This document shows, piece by piece, positions 13,087 to 59,920 of a stretch of DNA of 60,201 nt. The first letter of the stretch is position 1. Each line of letters opens with the position of its first letter. Both the position numbers and the translations under genes were made by a program. Under the pieces are notes generated by a model, which ran no database searches, was not told where the DNA came from, and was given only the letters and a program-made list of their open reading frames with translations. This DNA is from Girardia tigrina (lineage: Eukaryota). The stretch spans positions 2,910-63,110 of the forward strand of contig MQRK01228804.1 in assembly GCA_001938485.1 (NCBI GenBank), written 5' to 3'.

Positions 13087-16000
13087 CTGCAAAACCATAA
13101 TAATTGATTTCTTTAAAATTCAATAATATAAAAGACAAAAAAATTTAATATTTCATATCGAATTTTTTTTCTTTTAATTACAAAAAAAAACACTTTATAT
13201 TTTATTTTATATTTTATCTTCGAAAAAAATAAATAAATAATATAAATATAAAATTTATATACGTTGATTTTTATTGATTTACTTATTTTATCTTTTCTAA
13301 AAAAATGGAAACAATGAAAATTATTTCCAAACACAAAAAGAATTTTATATTTTTTAAAAAATAGAATATCTAACGTACAAGTTTTTTCCATTGTTTCTTC
13401 AGCATTCGCTAATGCATGTATACGTTTCTGTACAAATTCAATCAGTTCATTCAGTTCTTCAATAGTCAACATTCTCGAATCAGCCAATAAATGTAAATAG
13501 TAGATTGTTTTATCGTCCGGAGCAATGAAACCTGGCGGCATTCGCGACGGATCGAATGTCGGCTTGGGAGCGATTGATTTAAGATCACGTACACGTTTTT
13601 GGTAGCTTTCAAAATTACGGGCAACAAAAGATAGAGCATTATTTAATGGCATGTTTCGATGCTCTGGAAAATGATAATTGTTAATATATTGTGAGTAATG
13701 ATTTAAAAATATGACTATCCGAGATCACCAGACTAAATGAAGTTGAATACTTTAATAATTGGTGAGAAGAATATCAATTATAAAAATACTGAAATGAAAA
13801 GCAGAGGGATTTCATATAAACAAGAATATGGCAATGATAAAGATAGAATGGATATATTAATATATAAAAAACAATTTTTAAGAACTTTAATTTTATACAG
13901 ACAACGTGAAAATAATTCCTTCTCGTCATTTTGTTGTCATTCTGTCGATATATTGAATCATGAATTATAACATAAAAAATTTTGTTTTCTATATTTATTA
14001 ACTTGAAACTCATTTTAATAAAATTACAATAAATAATAAAAGATAAAAAGTACAATATAATAATAATACCCCTACTCCGAGGGATAAAAAAATTAATTAT
14101 AAAACATGGCGAAAATAATTTATTGAATTTGAAAATTAACTAGATCATGTAAGTTTATTCAGCAGTAAATCTATCACTCACGCTGGTTTATGTTCAAATG
14201 TAGTTGATCAGTATTAACGTAATGGGAGTGACGCTACATACCTCGAAGAGACTTATCACTAACTCTGTAAACAGATTGAGGAACAAAATCAAAGGGAAAA
14301 TGATAGTAATATTTCTTCAGTGTATAAAGAACTGGTCGAATAGTAATGAAAAGAATAGGATTTCAGGTTCACAATTTAATAATTAATGGAAGAGTGATGT
14401 TTGATGCACTGATGATCCGATCCTTATATCCAAAAATCAATATGTAAACATCATCTTCGACTTTATTAAATGTATTTTTATGATTTAGAAATTACATAAT
14501 TATTGTATAAACACTACTTGATGATATAAGTGCGAATATGTCATTTAGTCTGATGATTACGGTTGTACCATCGAAATTATTAATAATATATTGTGATCAA
14601 TCTTTTTTGAGTTTTAAAAACAATTTATCATCATTTTGAAATATTTATATGAACATAAAAAATGCTTATTTTACAAAACAACGCTTATATTGTCATTGGT
14701 TCTTCATTGGAAAACTGCAGAGATCACCAAGATCTACTAAAATTTTCACGGGGCCAAAATTTGTGGGATTTTCTGCGTATGATGTGAGGGCGATAATTAG
14801 GTCCCATGATTTACCGCGGCCAGCGGAATTCTATGCCTTCTATTTTTTATTTTTCTTGTATTATCATTATTTTGTAATATTATCATTTGGTTGTATAAGT
14901 TTCCAGGGCGACACACAACATGCTGCGGTATGCCGAATAATTTGTCGTTACTTGACGCGGTAAATCGTGTGACCTAGTAATAATCCATTTTGACAGTTCG
15001 ACTTTGAATAGTAGCAATTTGATTGCTTTTTCAAAGCCACAGTCTATCGGGGTGGTCCAGATGTATTATCGCATTACCAAAACTATTCAAACCAACTCAA
15101 AAAAATTTAACCAAAGAGTTAGCCGTTGATCAGAGTCAGCTAGCTCAGTTGTCGGAGCCCTTATTAAACGATCGAGAAGTTGTTTCTGGCCATTGAATAA
15201 TTAAAGGGTGCGAGAAATGTAATCCTTAGGACAATGATATAATCCAAACAATTATTTATTAGGACAAATACGAAAAATAATAATCTTCAGACATTTGCGA
15301 AACAAGTCAACTCAATCTAAGCATGGGAAGTCGGTGAAATATAAATTTGATAAATCGTAGAAAATTAACATTCAAAAATAATTAAAATTTCTCTTTAATC
15401 GAATATAACTAATTATTTCCACACTTATATTAACTCACATCATCAATTTGTCTATGGGTTACAATGTCATGTTAATAGCGATTCATTCGTATTGTAAAAA
15501 TAAGTCTCAGACCCGAGTCAGGATTTGAAGATGGATTTTTAAAATAAAAGATTTAAATTTCAGTTGATTTCCATTCTTTGTTGTTTATCCACCAATGATA
15601 ATGCGAGACACAAATTAATATAATATAAATACAATTTAAATTTATTCGATATTTATATTGTTCGCATGGATTACGAAATAATTCAAAGTCGATTATCTTG
15701 TTATTTATTATATTATCTGATGAATTTTAATCTAAAGTTCATCAGATACGAATATAACAAAGTGATATCAATAAATAACTAGTAGATAGAGAAACTTCAA
15801 ATAATTTTAACTGGTAAATCGATTTTTAAAATTAAATGCTTTACTAGTTGAAAAAATCGCGATAATTCACTCATAACAAGCTTCTCGAAAACCATTCAAC
15901 AGTCAATAAAAACAATAAATTATATAATTAATATCAGAAAATAGAATTTTATACACAGAATTGCGACCTAAAGGAAAATAAATGTCCCACAAAATAAGAT

Positions 16001-19000
16001 TACCTTGAGGAGTTCCATAGAGAATCCGAAGAGTACAACTGAAATGTTTCTCATTCAGCCCATTAACAAGGAAAGCGTACAGTACTCCTTTATTATTCAA
16101 ATCTTCAACACAAGCGTTAGCGTGTGATTCCTCTTTAAGAACGATAATGTGAGTTGTCAGTGCAATCTGGCGTTGAAGACGCGACTCGATTGTTTCAGCG
16201 TAATTCAACAATTCACTAGACATGACAATAATAGCCGCATCGAATCCCGGACGGTCTGAAGCAATTTTATCCGTGAATGGAGGTGAATTCCATTTCGGTT
16301 CTTGAACATCTTTTGGAATAATAGGATAATCCTGTCTGGAAAGAAGAGGCCCAAATAATAAGTGATCGCGAAGACTTATTGACAGACCTAGAGCGATTAT
16401 CCTCAGCACTGCTTCGAGATCTTTCATATTTTCTAAAATCTGGCGAATTGTGTCGATCTAAATGTTAATCAACGACTTAAATAAGTTTTACTAAAGTGGA
16501 TAATTTGGAATAAAGACTTGGATATGATATTAAATGTCGATCTAAGTTAAAATTTATCGGTTTAATTTAAAAGGATAATGGTGTTTTTAATTTAAATATT
16601 TGGATTTGGTTAGAATAAAAAGATGAAAACTTTTATCTTAGACTAATATTTATCTGTCAATCCACATTGAATTTAAAACTTTTTCAGCTTTTATTTTTTA
16701 CTGAGATATTATATATTTAAGATTTCATGAAAAGTAAAACATGTACCATAACGAAAATTCGAAAAATAGTTTTATTTTGTTTTATTATATCGGAAAATTT
16801 TACATAATGAACTTGATTGTAATAAAACAATTTTAAAGATCCTTTACATTTTAATATAGAAATATTCCAATGTATAAAGTGCTATTGACTCTAATTATAA
16901 TGAATTTTTTATAATAAAATATTTCTATTAAGAACGAGAGAATATAGAAATGGATATTTAAGGTCATTATTATGTCAAATCTTCTTTAATGTTACTTTTT
17001 TGTAATTTAAATAATGTAATGTGCAAAATAAACAGATAGCAAATTATTCGTGTGAGGAATACTGGAATGTTTGATGTTGTTTGTTAATTTGGGATTGTAT
17101 GTCCTATACAAATGATAGGTTAACATATTAATTTTTATCTGAAACTAATTTGATTTAAATTAAGATTTAATACATAAATGTTTTTTAACCCTTTGAACGC
17201 GTAAATCGACTACAGTCGCCCGGATTTAATGTTTAATAATGTTTAACGCGTTCAAATGGTTAAATTAAAAGCATTATAAAATGTTGAATGATTGGATTAA
17301 TTTTCTTTTAAATTCTTAGAATAAACCAAATTAATATTTTAAAATAAATATTTATTTTAATTTTTACCAATTCACATTAAATAATTTAAATCTTTTCATG
17401 CGTCAAATTGGTTCAGTTATTCGAATAAAACGTAGTACCGTATTTTCACGCATATAACCCACACAATTTTTTCCTCGAAACAAGCATTTGAAGTAGATAA
17501 AATCACACATTAACCGTTGGTTATCATCGCAAAATGTTCGTTTTTCTCGTGTAAATTATTTTTAGTATATTTAACCCACTTTTATAACCTGCACATGATG
17601 TGCGTCGTTGATAAAATCACACAAGATCCGCGGGTTATATACGTGAAAATCCGTTAATTTTTTTTTTAACTTTTTGATGTCGATAACTGAAAGCCCAACT
17701 ATGGATAGTCTCAAGGATAATCAAAATTGTGTCTAATAAAAATTATTATCGATGTGAATTCTTAACAATTCGAATAATTCTAGAATTCCTTTAGAAGTTT
17801 GTTTTCTAATCGGTTAGTTTGAGCTCTGAAATTATTCTGGTAACACAGTAGCATTATGTTTTTTATCGGATTGAAAAAGTCTATAGGTGTAAAATAAATC
17901 ATTCAATCAATATGATAAAAATTATTTTTATAAGTATTATTTTTATTTTTTTATAGTATAAGTAACCGTATTTGATGTGAGGAAAAATATCTGATATGTC
18001 AAGTTCGAAAAGAATTCCAAAGAATTAATAATTTCTTTAATTATATTTTTTATAACTAGATTTTTCAGTAGTGATAAAAATATTCTAAAGTAACAATGAA
18101 AAAGAATATGAAGATGATATTTTGACAACCACCTACGTATTTTATAAACCGTTCTCGATGCCGAAATTAAGCAATATATTATCTCAATTGATATTAGCAG
18201 CAAATTATTGTTTCATCGAGTTTAAATATTTAAATGTAACGTTATATGTAGTGAAGCGTAAATCAATTTGAATTGGTAACATTCAAAAAAAGTTAAAAGT
18301 ACGTGTTGTTAAATAGCGATAAAATTCAAAATATTTAATTCAATTTAAGATATTGAGCGTTGAAAAAATTCTTATTATAATGATTGTATTTAATTATACA
18401 CCAACCGAAAATAGATGTAGTGTTAAAAAAAATGTAAAGCGGACATCGTAACTATTTTTAAAGTTTACTTTACATCATAGCAAATTTATTTTGCTTATTT
18501 TATTACGGACATCAAATAAAAAACAAGCACTAGAAGATTATGATTGAAGGAAGAGTGGAAGGAGAAAGACTTAGAAGAAAACCAAATGAGACAATGGACA
18601 GACGACTTACAAGAATGGAGTGTATTAAACATGGAAGGTCCGAGAAAAGAGGCTACAAATAGAGAGATGTGGAGAATGCTTGTGGAAATTGGGTGCACCC
18701 ACGGCCCATCGGCTAAGGTTTAGATTAACCTATCTTACAGATTAACCACGTCCTTTCGAGGAGTCGCTGCAGTACCTCTGCAATTTAGCATTTTTATCAT
18801 AGCTTAACCGACAAACCAACAAACTAATATTTTAGACAATTATTATGAATTATTTTAATTTAATTAATTTATTATTAATAAGTATTTATTCATACGTTTT
18901 TATTTAATTATTATTTATTAATTATTTTAAAATTTTACTTGTAATAAATTATTATATTATTTTTTTTTAATTCTCAGTAGATTATCAAGCGTGAGACACA

Positions 19001-28322: not shown

Positions 28323-28714
28323 AATGTATTATGTATTATAGTGAAAAACATTTAGCTCGAAATAAATATCATTTCGTGTTAAGTGTTTTTCATTGTATAT
28401 AATTTTTTAATAGTTTGAAAACAATAATTCTTTGGGATATATGTACGTATTTGTAAGCGTTCTTTATCTGCTATAATCTTTCAAATTTGTATCAAATGAG
28501 TATAAGTGAGTCAAACAAATAATTATCATAACATATAATAATTACACTGTTTAATTAACCTTTATCATACGAATGTTTAATATAATAACAACTGTTTGTA
28601 GTCGTTGTTTGCCGAATTATCTATGTAATTAATTGGATTAATTCTAATTTGCTTGAATAATATAGTTTTTTTGTAAAGCAAAAAAATCATCTTATTTTAC
28701 AAGCTATCGCGGCT

Positions 28715-29284
28715 ATGAAAGCAATCAGTAATTTAAAGAAATTTGATGGTGGGGAGGACTTCGAACGTTGGATTGACAGATCCAAGTTTGCCATCGAGGT
28801 AGACGGGCTAATGGAAAAAGAAGTCTCGTGCTTGATCACGCTGTTGGATGGTCCGGCATGCGACACGTGGAAGGGCTTATCGCCGGATCAACAGAGAAAT
28901 GCAAAGGAAATCAAAAGTGAATTGCACCGAGTGTTTGGTTTGGGGAGATTTGACTCATGGCTGTTGCTTGGTCAAAAGAAGATTCTCCCGTTTGACAGAT
29001 TAGACGTGTCGGCGTCTGAGATCAATCATTTGATACGGACCGTCGTTGGGGACCAGGATTCGTTCGATGCGTTTTGTGCAATGAAATTTATTCACAGTTT
29101 ACCGGATCAATTAAAAAGAGAGGTGCAGCCAAGATTGAACGTCGAATTCACGTTCAAGAGTGTTGTGAACTTGGTCAAAAAGATATCACCTCATCAACAT
29201 CATCAAGAAGTGATTGCCGCGACCAACAGTAAATTTCGATGTTTTGGTTGTAATCGACTTGGACACACGCAGAAGACGTGTTGA
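28715..29284 (+). pseudogene. Gypsy Gag ORF (premature stop between the two zinc knuckles)
   Basis: KFDGGEDFERW...LLDGPA; CCHC motif; the frame continues past TGA 29284 into a second knuckle. Confidence 0.8.
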
Positions 29285-29771
29285 GTTAAATGCTTTAAAT
29301 GGGGAGAAGTCGGACATATAAAAGAAAACTGTAACATGTCGGGAAAAGACAGAGGGGAGGGCGTCACGAATTGATTTTGAAGCTCAATTTGACGGAAGGT
29401 ATTGGAGTACATGATGGAGATTTGTCAATGATCATCCGGTTGGGAGTACCTCATGTGTCAATTATGATATTCCCAATGAAGATAAAGAGCCATTTCGAGA
29501 TGAAGTGAAGAAGTGGAAAGTGAAGGTGTTCTGATAAAGTAGGATGAAAAGCGATACGGGATGATTCGTAACAAGATACCGTTGATGAGAGTACAGCAAG
29601 TCAAAGGCAAAACGACACGAATACGACCGGTATTAGACTACAGTTTACTGAACGAACAAGTTCATAGCTATCTGGGCAGTAGTTATGCTAGTTGCTAGTC
29701 ACGATTACGAGAGTGGAGAAAATTGGGACCCAACTGCGGTATAATAGATTTAAAAAAGCCTTACCTACAAG

Positions 29772-31780
29772 CATACTTAATACACAGTACCCAGTGACCC
29801 AGTACTTACCGACTATCAGTTCCAAAATTTGTAAAAATGACTGACCCAGTACTGACCCGGTTTATGAATTTTTTTGGGTAATTTTTTACTGGGTCACAAC
29901 TGAGTCACAAATTAGTACTATTTAAAAAAATATATCGAGAAATTAATAAAAAATAAAAAAATAAACAAAGAAAAACAAAATTAAATAGATTAAAATGAAA
30001 ATGTTTTTTTCATCTGTTTTAAGTTTCTTTTACAATTTCAAAGATAATTGAAAGTAATTTTCTCTTTTTCCATTTTTTGTTTAAATATAACATCAAAAAT
30101 TTTGATTCAAAATGAAACGTGGTCCGAAAAGACAAGCCCCTTTCTGGGAATACTTTTAAGAAACAGAAAGAGATGGCTTTGATGGATATTAATGCAAAAT
30201 TAATCCTTGCAACTACTTTAACAAAGGTCGAAATGTCACAACATTAAAACGACATTTGTCAAGCTGCCAGAGCGATGTTCATGAGGACCTGCAATCAAAA
30301 ACTGTGTAAATTTCTGAACCAATAGTTTTAAAATACCCTTCCAATGTTCAAACATTTAAATTTCGATCTCTTATCGCAGAACTTTTCCTCCACACTCAAA
30401 TTAGTGAAAACATTATTGAATCCAAGGTATTTCGAAAATTATTAATACATCTCAATCCAAAATATGAAGAATCGATTCCTTTTTACAGTGATCTGAATCA
30501 GCTTCTTCAAGATGAATTTCTCAAAATGAAGGTAAAAGCCAAATAATTGATTAAATCAGGTAAAATCTCAATTGCAGTCGACATATAGTCCAAGAAAAAC
30601 TATTTGGAATCTTTCCTTGGTATTACCATTCAAATTCCATATAGTTCCTGTGTTAGAAACATTGCTCTCGACCTTAAAAAAATTTCTCAACCCCATACAA
30701 CAGAGAAAATTCTGTTTTGCTCTTCCAAAATCCTCGCCTCATGGAATATTGACTACTCCAATATTTCAAGAATCACAACTGATGAAGGTGCAAATATTGT
30801 AAAGGCATTTTCAAATAGTCTTTTGATGACAAAATCAATTGCAAAGGTCACAAAAATTTTCAATAATATTGACAATGAAGAGCACGTTGATTCAGAGGAA
30901 GAGTCTACTTCAGACATAGAAAGTGATATTATTTCATCCGAGAATGAAAGTGATTATTCAATCATGAATTGAATCATTATGAATATATCGAATCAAAAAG
31001 AATCTCATGTGTAGCTCATATTTTGAATTCCTCATTGAAGCATATTTTGGACAGATCATCAGTTATCAAAATCAAACAATCTGTCACTGAATTGATCAAA
31101 AAATTACAATGTAATGTAAAAAAACTGGATTTTTGAATAATATTTCTGATAGAAAACTAGTCAAAGTTGCAGCAACTAGATGGAATTCTTTGTATCTTGC
31201 TTGCCACAGAATTGTTGAAATGAGATCTAAATTGTTATTGCTTGTGACGTCTTTAATATGAAAATCGGATTTGGTTGGAATCAACTTCTTGCTCTAGAGA
31301 ATTTTTTGAAACCATTTTTTGATGCAACAAATGTCTTTCAAGGAGATGGCAATCAAATCAGCAGAGTTATCGCCCCATTGCTGGACATTAAACTTTTTGT
31401 TAAATGTTAAAGTAATAGAATTTTGGACACAAAACAAGGACAAATACACAAATATTTGGAGAGATGTGACAGAGTATTTGTCCATACAAGGAACATCGGC
31501 TTCGGTTGAAAGAATGTTTTCTATTTCTTGCTATTTGTCAAGTGATAGAAAGTCAAAAATAAGCTTTGAAAAGCTTTGAATTCGAAATCTTTGTTCTTAT
31601 AATAAAAATATTTGATTATGTCTCTTATATAATTTTTTTAATTAATCTTTTCTATTAAAATTATTTCTTAGAATATTCATTGACCCAGTTATGACATAGT
31701 ACTGACCCAGAAATAATTTTTTTTGGCAAAAATGACCCAGTAATGACTTTTAAAAAAATCTTAACTGGGTACCAAGTATG
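29772..31780 (+). mobile_element. hAT transposon (BED finger, decayed transposase ~30112-31615) inserted in the Gypsy RT
   Basis: Perfect 8-bp TSD cctacaag (29764-29771, 31781-31788); TIRs catactt...cagt / actgggtaccaagtatg; tgacccag subterminal repeats; motifs FWEYF, SFLGIT, ITTDEGANI, SCVAHILN, TRWNS, TSASVERMFS. Confidence 0.95.
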
Positions 31781-33574
31781 CCTACAAGTAACGGTGGCTC
31801 CAGATTTGTGGAAATATCAGGCGGTTATTAATATATGGAATGGCGAAATCTCTGTGATGACCAGGTTAGGGTTTGGTCTATCCTTTGCGCCAAGACTGAT
31901 GTCAAGGATAGCTGAAACTATAATCAAGGAAGAGCAGACGATAACTGCTTCTGGGTATATTGATGACGTATCCATTGCGGAAATTTCTTGTAATACAGAG
32001 GATGTCGTAGGAATTTTTCGTCGGTTTGGGTTGGAGTCTAAACTCATAGAACGGATTGACTTAGATAAAGATGTCAGGGTGCTTGGACTGAATGTAAAAA
32101 GCAATTTTCAGTGGGGAAGAGACCAAGAGCTCGTAACTAGGAAGCTTTAGATTCCAACGAGAACAGAAGTACATGGAATTTTGGGGGAGTGGATAGGCCA
32201 TGTATGAGTTGCAGGATAGTTACGAGTTACTTGTGCCTACATTCAGAGATTATCCGCAAAATAAAAGATAGACTGGAATGAATTAGTGCCAAATTAGATC
32301 ATAGAGAAAGTTAATGAAATCTGTCAAAGGCTGAGGATGGATGGAGATCCAGCAACAGGCAAGTGGGTGGTAAATTGCAATAATAATGTTGTCATTTGGA
32401 CAGATACAAGTAGTATAGCAATGAGCGTAATACTATGTGTTAACGGTGATATCGTTGAAGACGCTGCTTGGTTAAGGAAAGAAGACGATACAAGCTCTAA
32501 CATGAGTGAACTGGATGCGGCCATAATTGGAAAAAAAACTTGGCAATAACCTGGGACTTTCATAAGTTCAAGCTGATGACGGACTCAGAAACAGTGTATT
32601 GATGGCTCATGGTAGTATTCAAGAATACACACAACCCAAGAACCCGCAGATTATCTGAACATTTGGTACGCTGAAGACTCGATATTATGAGAGAGTAGAA
32701 AGATCAAGAAAAACTGGAAGTGGAACTGGAATTGGTGAAATCTCAATTGAATATGGCATATTGTTTTTAGCAGGGTTCCAAAACAATGGCTGGGAGTAAC
32801 AAATGACCATAAATCCATCAAAAAGATCCTATCTCGAATATTCAAAAAATCATTCTCAAATTAAATCCGTACACTCAGAAGTTGTATCTCATATGATTAA
32901 ACTAGTTCATTGTAATAAAGAGTCGAGTGAAATGATGATATGAATTTCGAATGTTTTGGGAGTATAATTTATCAAAGAAATTCCTTGATGAAAAACATCA
33001 AATAATGGATTTATCCGAAAAGCTGAAAATCCCAGTTATTGTTCAAACCAAAATCAAATCATCAAGACTGATGGAAAAATTTACTCATTAATTTTCTTTT
33101 GATTTCGATGGAAATATTGAACTATTAAAAAATAATAAATTGTGAATATTTTAATTTGTTCGATATAGTGTAAAAGCATTTTTGAGTGTTAATATTTAGC
33201 CATTAAAAAAAAATTAATCATTAAAAAATGAATAAACAAATCATAGAGTTTTAATTGAAATAACTGTTAATAATCATGCCAAAAATTTTTTTGGTGTATA
33301 AGCTTTTATAATTTGTCATATGTTTGCGGTTCTGTCTCTATTTCATCCACTTCCATCATTAAAAGACTTGGATTGTAGTGATCTGTAATGATTTGTTGTA
33401 CATAAATATATTCAACTGAATAATTTTCCTCACAAAAACCAAAGATGAGAAAGTTCATAGAAGTGTGATTTAAATCTGAAACAAGAAAGAGAGTTTTTAT
33501 TAAAACTTGGTCTCAATTGTCTTTAAGAACACTTACTTTTCAAGAAAATATAAGAGAATTATGAGAGAAAAAAA

Positions 33575-34086: not shown

Positions 34087-35364
34087 TGGGTTGGCCAAAA
34101 TGTCATTGCGTTTTTTACTAAAATATTTATAATCAAAAAATGACATGGATGCACAAATATTTTTACACGATATACTGTCCATTATTTTCAATCACTTTCT
34201 TCCACCTTTCCGGTAGCTTTATTATTCCTGATTCATAAAAACCTTTGGCTTTGTCAGCAAAAAAGCCGTCTAGGAACGATTTGATGTCATCATCACTGGC
34301 GAATGTTTTTCTGTTTAAGGAATTCTGCAGTGATCTAAATAAGTGAAAATCCGATGGGGCCAAATCTGAAGAATATGGTGGGTGCGTCCAAACCTCCCAA
34401 CCCTGTGATAAGAGTTTCTGGTGAGTGGTCAAACTTGTATGCGGTCTTGCGTTATCATGCTGAATTACAACTCCTTTTCGATTTGCCAATTCAGGACGTT
34501 CCTGTTGAATTGAATGAACAAATTTCTCCAGCTGACCACAATATCTGTCTGAACTGATGGTTTCATTCCTCGGAAGGAGTTCAAAAAACACAATTCCTTT
34601 AATATCCCACCAGACGAAAAGCATAACCCTCTTTTAGTGAATTTCTGCTTTTGGGATCGTTTTGACAGGCTCACCACGTTTTGTCCATGATCGTCGGCAT
34701 TTCACATTGTTGTAAACAATCCATTTTTCGTCACTCGTAATCAAGCGCTTCAAAAATGAATCACTTTGTTCTCGCTTCAAAAGGGAATCGCAAATGTCTA
34801 TACGTTTTACCAAATGAATTTCTTTCAGTTCATGTGGTAACCACATATCGAGTTTACTGACGAATTCAAGTTTCTTTAAATGACTTCCAACACTTGATTT
34901 TAATATTTCCAGAGTCTCTGCAACTTTTCTTGTCGTCATATGTGGATTAGGTTTGATCAGTGCTGTTATTTTGTCGCCATCAACTTCAACTGGTCGACCG
35001 GAGCGTGGTGCATCTTTAAGATGAATTTTTTCAGAACGAAATTTAGAAAACCAGTATTGACACTGTCGTTTTAATGAGTCACTACCATATACAAAACATA
35101 TCTTCTTATGAGCTTGCACAGTGGTTTTCCCTTTGTGAAAATAATGAAACAAATATGACGAATATGCTCCTTTTGATTTTCCATTTCGAATTGACGGTAA
35201 AGTAATAAATTAAAAAAAAATCAATTAATATTTTGTATAAACATAGTCTAAAAATTAAGGTTTCAGAATATATAATTGAATTTAAATTTTATCACATCGT
35301 TTTATATTTTCAAGATTTTAATTAGGACGTACTCAAAAACGCAATGACTTTTTGGCAAACCCAA
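34087..35364 (-). mobile_element. Full-length mariner (DD34D) element, inactivated transposase 35184-34163
   Basis: TIRs ttgggttggccaaaatgtcattgcg / cgcaatgactttttggcaaacccaa with TA TSD, 1278 bp; WLPHEL, TSDEKW, HDNARPH, YSSDLAPSD; frameshift near 35150 and stop at 34634-34636. Confidence 0.96.
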
Positions 35365-59680: not shown

Positions 59681-59920
59681 GTAACCATGGCAACGATACC
59701 TGTTATCGCGGTTACCATGGCAACGGTCGCGATTACCATAGCAACGGTCGCGGTTACCATGACAACGGTCGCGGTTACCATAGCAACGGTCACGATTACC
59801 TTAGTTACGGTCGCGGTTACCATGGCAACGGTCGCGATCACCTTAGTTACGGTTGCTAAGGACCGTTGCTAAGGACCAGTAACCTGATCTAGGTTGCTAG
59901 GTGACCGTTACCATGGCAAC
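59681..59920. repeat. 21-bp tandem array (ggtcgcg-gttaccatggcaac) of X-box-like palindromes, probably the subterminal region of a TE
   Basis: Seven units with cores at 59711, 59732, 59753, 59774, 59795, 59816, 59837; extra cores at 59681 and 59907. Confidence 0.9.

Follow-up and report, generated by a model that had tools for sequence, protein, structure and literature searches.

A putative primer-binding site complementary to the 5′ end of host tRNAs in a DUF7047-marked clade of LTR retrotransposons

The window analysed here (the whole stretch of 60,201 nt of Girardia tigrina DNA) contains a broken LTR retrotransposon in which the 5′ LTR is directly followed by a putative primer-binding site (PBS) complementary to the first 12 nt of tRNA-Phe. 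Sites of this type were found throughout a clade of related elements, here called the DUF7047 clade, and sequence comparison across hosts argues strongly that the site is real, clade-wide, and tied to tRNA 5′ ends. Priming from a 12-nt 5′ tRNA fragment would be the best explanation for the pattern in this clade, with a probability that we put at about 0.8. The accessible part of a primer survey lists three primer types for LTR elements, i.e., the whole tRNA, a half tRNA produced by cleavage in the anticodon stem, and a self-primer (PMC6317226); a 12-nt 5′-terminal tRNA site fits none of these.

The 5′ LTR of the window element (28624–28701, plus strand; 78 bp, TG...CA) matches both LTRs of the full-length copies L072, L077, and L084 and ends in TTACA. 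The putative PBS, AGCTATCGCGGC (28702–28713, plus strand), follows with zero spacer and is separated by one T from the gag ATG at 28715, confirming the position given in the initial annotation; the reading of this 12-mer as the complement of a tRNA-Phe-type 5′ end also held, as it is the exact complement of nt 1–12 of tRNA-Phe(GAA). The gag ORF (28715–29284, plus strand; 189 aa) ends past the first CCHC knuckle, and a 90%-identical relative has 243 aa. A pol piece with the start of the RT (29372–29771, plus strand), recognized by blastn to L072 and L084, has a broken frame and is preceded by a gap of ~600 bp in the protease region; a second pol piece (31781–32791, plus strand), representing the RT, DUF7047, and RNase H region, lies beyond an unrelated, repeat-rich 2-kb insert (29772–31780). 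No integrase or 3′ LTR of the element was found in the 60,201-nt window. Elsewhere, the window contains a mariner-like transposase remnant (34163–35209, minus strand), an exon (15903–16457, minus strand) that we take to resemble NCOA5, and an array of 21-nt tandem repeats (59685–59873).

A second LTR copy was present in 9 of the 19 family copies fetched, and the repeat ended exactly at the CA before the site in seven of them, in agreement with the LTR end at 28701 proposed from the window alone. Full copies are ~3.9 kb long, with LTRs of 75–78 bp and a purine tract ahead of the 3′ LTR; the two TG..CA LTRs, the polypurine tract (PPT), and the target site duplication (TSD) identify them as LTR retrotransposons. 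An exact 5-bp TSD was found in L072, L083, and L075, as well as in L222 of the Lys family and L131 from outside this genome (both described below), and a TSD with one mismatch in L079, L084, and L228; L073 presented no TSD. The LTRs are AT-rich, and gag starts 1 nt past the site in the window element, L072, and L084, leaving little room for a promoter, R region, and leader. Short LTRs are a feature of Mag-like Ty3/gypsy elements.

Exact copies of the 12-mer numbered 1122 in the 1.43-Gb genome, versus 8 for the reversed control pattern. The first 30 of these loci fetched all shared the LTR-end/ATG setting of the window copy: CA preceded the site in 28 and a gag start (called at a profile score of at least 15 bits) followed it in 26, each with the ATG at an offset of 0–12 nt; two of the misses were contig ends. 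The 29 loci that could be scored represented 20 different LTR-end groups, and none of the 30 loci contained a tRNA gene. In a set of 30 close copies, the site was exact in 10 and presented scattered changes in the others, as expected for old copies that are ~90% identical. In the Lys family, which carries a site of a different type, a 135-bp LTR also ends at the site (L221 and L222); L221 consists of two Lys-type elements in tandem with one common LTR (LTR-internal-LTR-internal).

A 14-mer that extends the complement of the site into the D arm occurs four times in the genome, each time as the start of a tRNA-Phe piece. The initial annotation had called for a host tRNA with this start, and such a start was found in these pieces and in the intact tRNA-Phe-GAA of a planarian tRNA table (accessible part of supplement 4 of PMC7722302), which begins identically and is consistent with the assembly pieces; similar tRNA-Phe entries appear in the available supplement rows of PMC7962491. 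Neither ARAGORN nor Rfam recovered an intact tRNA-Phe gene from the assembly, and none was present among 66 genes in 34 tRNA loci (Rfam scores covering the best candidates only); the missing gene probably reflects a collapsed array. Instead, tRNA-Phe is represented only by tandem-array pieces (L031–L034, L036, and L039), and other tRNAs are found in short tandem arrays on small contigs. The tRNA-Phe 3′ pieces overlap one 5′ piece by 16 nt, and one locus has a tandem arrangement of 3′ piece, spacer, and 5′ piece; a processed tRNA-Phe 3′ piece with a terminal CCA is present at three loci. For the other site types, intact host genes are available: the first 12 nt of the tRNA-Lys(TTT) genes are complementary to the commonest site class, and the start of the intact tRNA-Lys(CTT) gene is the exact complement of its own site 12-mer. 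The sole 12-nt match to the Lys-type site among the 66 host tRNA genes begins at nt 1; the remaining matches are of 7 nt or less, save one Lys copy. No 12-nt match of the Lys-type site to an anticodon-stem region was found among the 66 genes.

Several tRNAs thus have matching sites within this one genome. With the four middle letters of the pattern left free, 1545 genome matches were obtained versus 5 for the control, and the first 100 comprised 65 Lys-TTT, 14 Phe, and 1 Lys-CTT sites, with 20 within 1–2 changes; among 100 sites examined within a Lys family for re-copying of the site from the primer, 85 were Lys-TTT, 2 Lys-CTT, and 13 other. Sites of foreign type were at background in this host (human-type Phe 3 and another Phe type 3, among 18 matches versus 20 for the control), and gag-bearing host copies with foreign-type sites are L237, L238, and L243. 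Met-type sites were absent (0 of 37), and the first 100 of 141 matches included one Ile-type and no Thr-type site; the near absence of the Met, Ile, and Thr types suggests that some tRNAs with the right frame go unused. Ty1 and Ty3 are reported not to copy the PBS from the primer (PMC7472051).

Outside the host genome, 733 related cluster representatives were identified at E ≤ 0.001, those with a name being from barnacle. An alignment of 50 relatives yielded 78 metagenome loci (the best 80 of 125 were kept) and 8 loci from bacterial bins, 86 in total; the latter (L169–L176) belong to an animal-type clade and are likely to represent contamination by a eukaryotic host, and no clade relatives were found in viral contigs. 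The gag was located by profile, and 66 loci were informative, as the region was missing in 20. A tRNA-start site was present in 64 of these 66 (57 non-redundant), the informative loci L119 and L126 having no full site, and the repeat ended at the site in the five outside loci with a complete second LTR (L117, L121, L131, L132, and L170). Conservation spans the LTR end and positions 1–12 and falls to ≤0.3 bits from position 13; within the site it reaches 1.5–2 bits facing the invariant tRNA bases and is low facing the variable acceptor stem, with the conservation of the first five letters partly built in because the site finder demanded them. All sites face A9 of the tRNA and never G9, a pattern also partly built into the finder. 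Facing A9 only would fit avoidance of m1G9.

Exact matches to a documented tRNA start were found for 40 of the 64 outside sites, namely 17 to human tRNA-Phe (the commonest outside class; start taken from the accessible part of PMC11706605), 10 to planarian-type Phe, 8 to a Phe gene from a viral contig, 3 to Lys(TTT), and 2 to Lys(CTT). The other 24 have no exact match to a documented tRNA of eukaryote type: 13 match viral-contig tRNA starts only, in four further classes (weak matches, as the frame is common), 2 are near Met, 5 are deviant, and 4 were not compared. The two near-Met sites differ from the host Met by one base and have C, not A, as their first letter, as an elongator tRNA-Met with G at nt 12, such as that of the host, would require. 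L147, L148, L162, L174, and L092 retain the first 9–11 letters but differ in the final three, as though a G had dropped out or pairing to tRNA nt 1–2 were dispensable. A quick tree of this clade only was built from 71 rows, of which 8, among them all 7 copies from the host genome, were removed because their unbroken RT stretch was short; site variants recur on separate branches of this tree. Pairs from the same assembly had an identical 12-mer in 14 of 49 cases versus 5.9 in shuffles, kinship not being controlled in this comparison. The site remains at the LTR in L142, L152, and L167 even though these have a long leader. L142 also presents, between site and gag (1845–1948), a tRNA-like stretch with a B-box-like motif and a T run, perhaps a captured tRNA or a Pol III promoter; ARAGORN and Rfam were negative for this stretch.

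The elements resemble Ty3/gypsy in having gag followed by PR-RT-RH-IN, CX2CX4HX4C knuckles, an H2C2 integrase, TG..CA ends, a PPT, and a 5-bp TSD, and differ from typical Ty3/gypsy in having DUF7047 after the RT (PR-RT-DUF7047-RNase H-IN), an RNase H of RVT_3/RNase_H-like type, and no TGG site. The "Gypsy" label of the initial annotation is therefore only partly supported: it agrees with the domain order, which BEL/Pao and Troyka share, and fits the typical Gypsy RNase H profiles poorly, the RT and RNase H both being divergent. The RVT_1 scores are 24–30 bits (cut-off 29.6), there is no significant RT_RNaseH match, RT_RNaseH_2 reaches E 0.05 in one of four, and a weak Pao A17 match has E 0.0065. 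From sequence, the clade (P0156 and relatives) may represent an unnamed deep LTR lineage. Troyka elements are likewise small LTR elements of aquatic animals with the Gypsy domain order and divergent enzymes; however, membership in Troyka was rejected because, as given in the accessible part of PMC12440569, Troyka has CG..CG ends, a 3-bp TSD, and CX2CX8-10HX4C knuckles, all of which differ from the DUF7047 clade. Primers go unmentioned in that part of the paper.

Among known priming systems, half-tRNA priming (Drosophila copia, Ty5, and the plant elements Osser, Bryco, Gymco-II, and Bianca) likewise uses the 5′ piece of a cut tRNA and not the CCA end; the cleavage there falls in the anticodon stem, and the accessible part of the plant survey reports such systems only for Ty1/copia with Met or Ile (PMC6317226). 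In contrast, the DUF7047 clade has a site that pairs with nt 1–12, an implied cut in the D stem, matches to Phe, Lys, and probably Met, and the order PR-RT-RH-IN. The Tf1/sushi elements Tf1, Tf2, and Tj1 resemble the clade in another respect, as their primer is only 11 nt long, comes from the very 5′ terminus of an RNA, and is released by RNase H (available portions of PMC7175516 and PMC4600332), whereas in the DUF7047 clade there is no complement in the LTR or elsewhere in the element and the matching RNA is a host tRNA. The Conserved Hairpin Site of the fungal GalEa elements and the internal tRNA-Lys site of FunCo1 are further non-canonical sequences at the PBS position, but these are copia elements with a palindrome/hairpin or an internal tRNA region instead of tRNA nt 1–12 (PMC5445492).

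In the mechanism that we propose, the tRNA, or a longer 5′ tRNA fragment (tRF), would anneal to the site through nt 1–12, with the site replacing the strands to which these nucleotides pair in the acceptor stem and D stem of the tRNA; cleavage or trimming of the RNA between nt 12 and nt 13 would then leave a 3′-OH beside the LTR end, and the RT would extend the 12-nt fragment into minus-strand DNA. By antiparallel pairing in the sequence, tRNA nt 12 adjoins the last LTR base, and the 12-bp tRNA:site duplex has a predicted energy of ~ −23 kcal/mol. The site stops at G1 with the next base free, which points to a mature tRNA end, and the complement of nt 13–14 is absent, so that a primer must end at nt 12 and cleavage would have to occur within the D stem, an unusual position. 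On this evidence, all of it genomic, tRNA nt 1–12 very probably represent the primer. If so, a cut by the element's own RNase H is slightly favoured by analogy with Tf1, in which RNase H cuts after an 11-nt duplex (available portion of PMC7175516); the same reaction would here be carried out in trans on a tRNA. The D-E-D-D acidic residues of the RNase H are kept in 49–50 of 50 relatives. Overall, the clade-wide pattern supports the earlier suggestion of priming from a very short 5′ tRNA fragment cut near the D arm, the identity of the primer and the cut being what we infer. The fuller picture, of an old, deep-branching, DUF7047-marked lineage with a fourth priming mode, in which RNase H cuts the host tRNA after nt 12 in trans and which switches among Phe, Lys, and Met and tracks the host tRNA, is offered only tentatively.

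A primer made by the host would leave the main claim intact and differ solely in the cutter: a host nuclease would yield 5′ tRFs of 14–24 nt that an exonuclease trims to 12 nt, or a ready 12-mer would be captured, with the element's RNase H uninvolved. Planarians contain 5′ tRFs in abundance, Lys-TTT 5′ halves among them, with tRF-5s of 18, 21, and 24 nt in a data set covering 18 nt and longer only (accessible part of PMC7962491), and half-tRNA primers are themselves cut tRNAs (accessible part of PMC6317226); however, the Phe, Lys, and Met types all stop at nt 12 across hosts, which would better fit a cut measured from the duplex or the LTR, and we therefore regard a host-made primer as plausible and as the less probable of the two origins. 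Another small RNA with a tRNA-like 5′ end, such as the RNA of a tRNA-derived SINE, a spliced leader, or a piRNA, would be compatible with the tRNA-derived repeats present in the genome and with a Phe start seen in the assembly only within gene pieces. Spliced leader primers are known from the Oikopleura Tor elements. Such an origin is nevertheless very unlikely here, as three site classes correspond to three intact-type tRNA starts in one host, which a single leader RNA cannot explain, a fourth class follows the G12 change of Met, and the four matches of the 14-mer are tRNA-Phe pieces and not a high-copy SINE.

Two further explanations dispense with a tRNA-derived primer. Self-priming of the Tf1 type, in which the 5′ end of the element transcript serves as primer, would account for the similar primer length (11 nt in Tf1) and the zero spacer, and the initial annotation had pointed to an 8/12 match at 28611 as a possible complement. 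That match proved to lie outside the LTR, in flanking target DNA (28552–28623, strand not assigned) that is a piece of a separate small dispersed repeat holding the element insertion; moreover, no self-priming complement was found in the LTRs of family copies or at outside loci, the longest exact LTR complement being 4 nt in the window and at most 5 nt in 10 copies from this genome, and the longest upstream of the site in 49 outside loci at most 7 nt (mean 5.4 versus 5.6 shuffled), making self-priming highly improbable unless the transcripts gain a non-templated 5′ end. The site might also pair with the 5′ end of an uncut tRNA and act in packaging, dimerisation, or gag translational control, with priming by some other route. 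The gag ATG is often 0–10 nt from the site, in line with such a role. Ty1 and Ty3 use additional boxes that pair with the tRNA. Pairing between tRNA and PBS can also serve other functions (accessible part of PMC13537249). This explanation is unlikely, however, because, in the orientation of the pairing, nt 12 falls precisely at the LTR end and no spacer intervenes, because the long-leader relatives keep the site at the LTR and not at gag, and because no alternative primer site is present: TGG was seen close to the LTR end at 13 of 57 loci, mostly as gag ATGG and at no fixed place, and a canonical TGG site 0–5 nt past the LTR, able to pair with the CCA end of a tRNA, was found in neither own nor outside copies, bearing out the initial observation of no TGG at this position.

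No description of a PBS complementary to tRNA nt 1–12 was found in the openly searchable literature, Repbase and closed journals being beyond reach, and a query with six of the site sequences presented no retrotransposon paper among the matches listed. The PBS goes unmentioned in the main text of mollusc and annelid LTR surveys, the RT motifs of the clade were not found in the readable supplements of these surveys, no paper naming DUF7047 was found, and the accessible part of the Saci2 paper contains no 5′-end site. There is an appreciable minority chance of a prior mention in Repbase reports, subscription journals, bioRxiv supplements, or supplement files. The PBS search methods examined, as described in the available part of PMC6317226, use tRNA 3′ ends only, so that elements of this kind are scored as having no PBS.

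If priming by tRNA nt 1–12 is correct, a 12-nt 5′-terminal tRNA primer would constitute a fourth primer type of LTR elements and a clade-wide mode, with thousands of copies in a single animal genome and further occurrences in many other hosts. Such priming would imply an as yet undescribed cleavage within the D stem of the tRNA and would provide a concrete role for very short 5′ tRNA fragments. The mode would also represent a possible intermediate between tRNA priming and the self-priming of Tf1; in the fuller, tentative picture given above, it would form a mechanistic bridge between the two and let the elements escape silencing by 3′ tRNA fragments.
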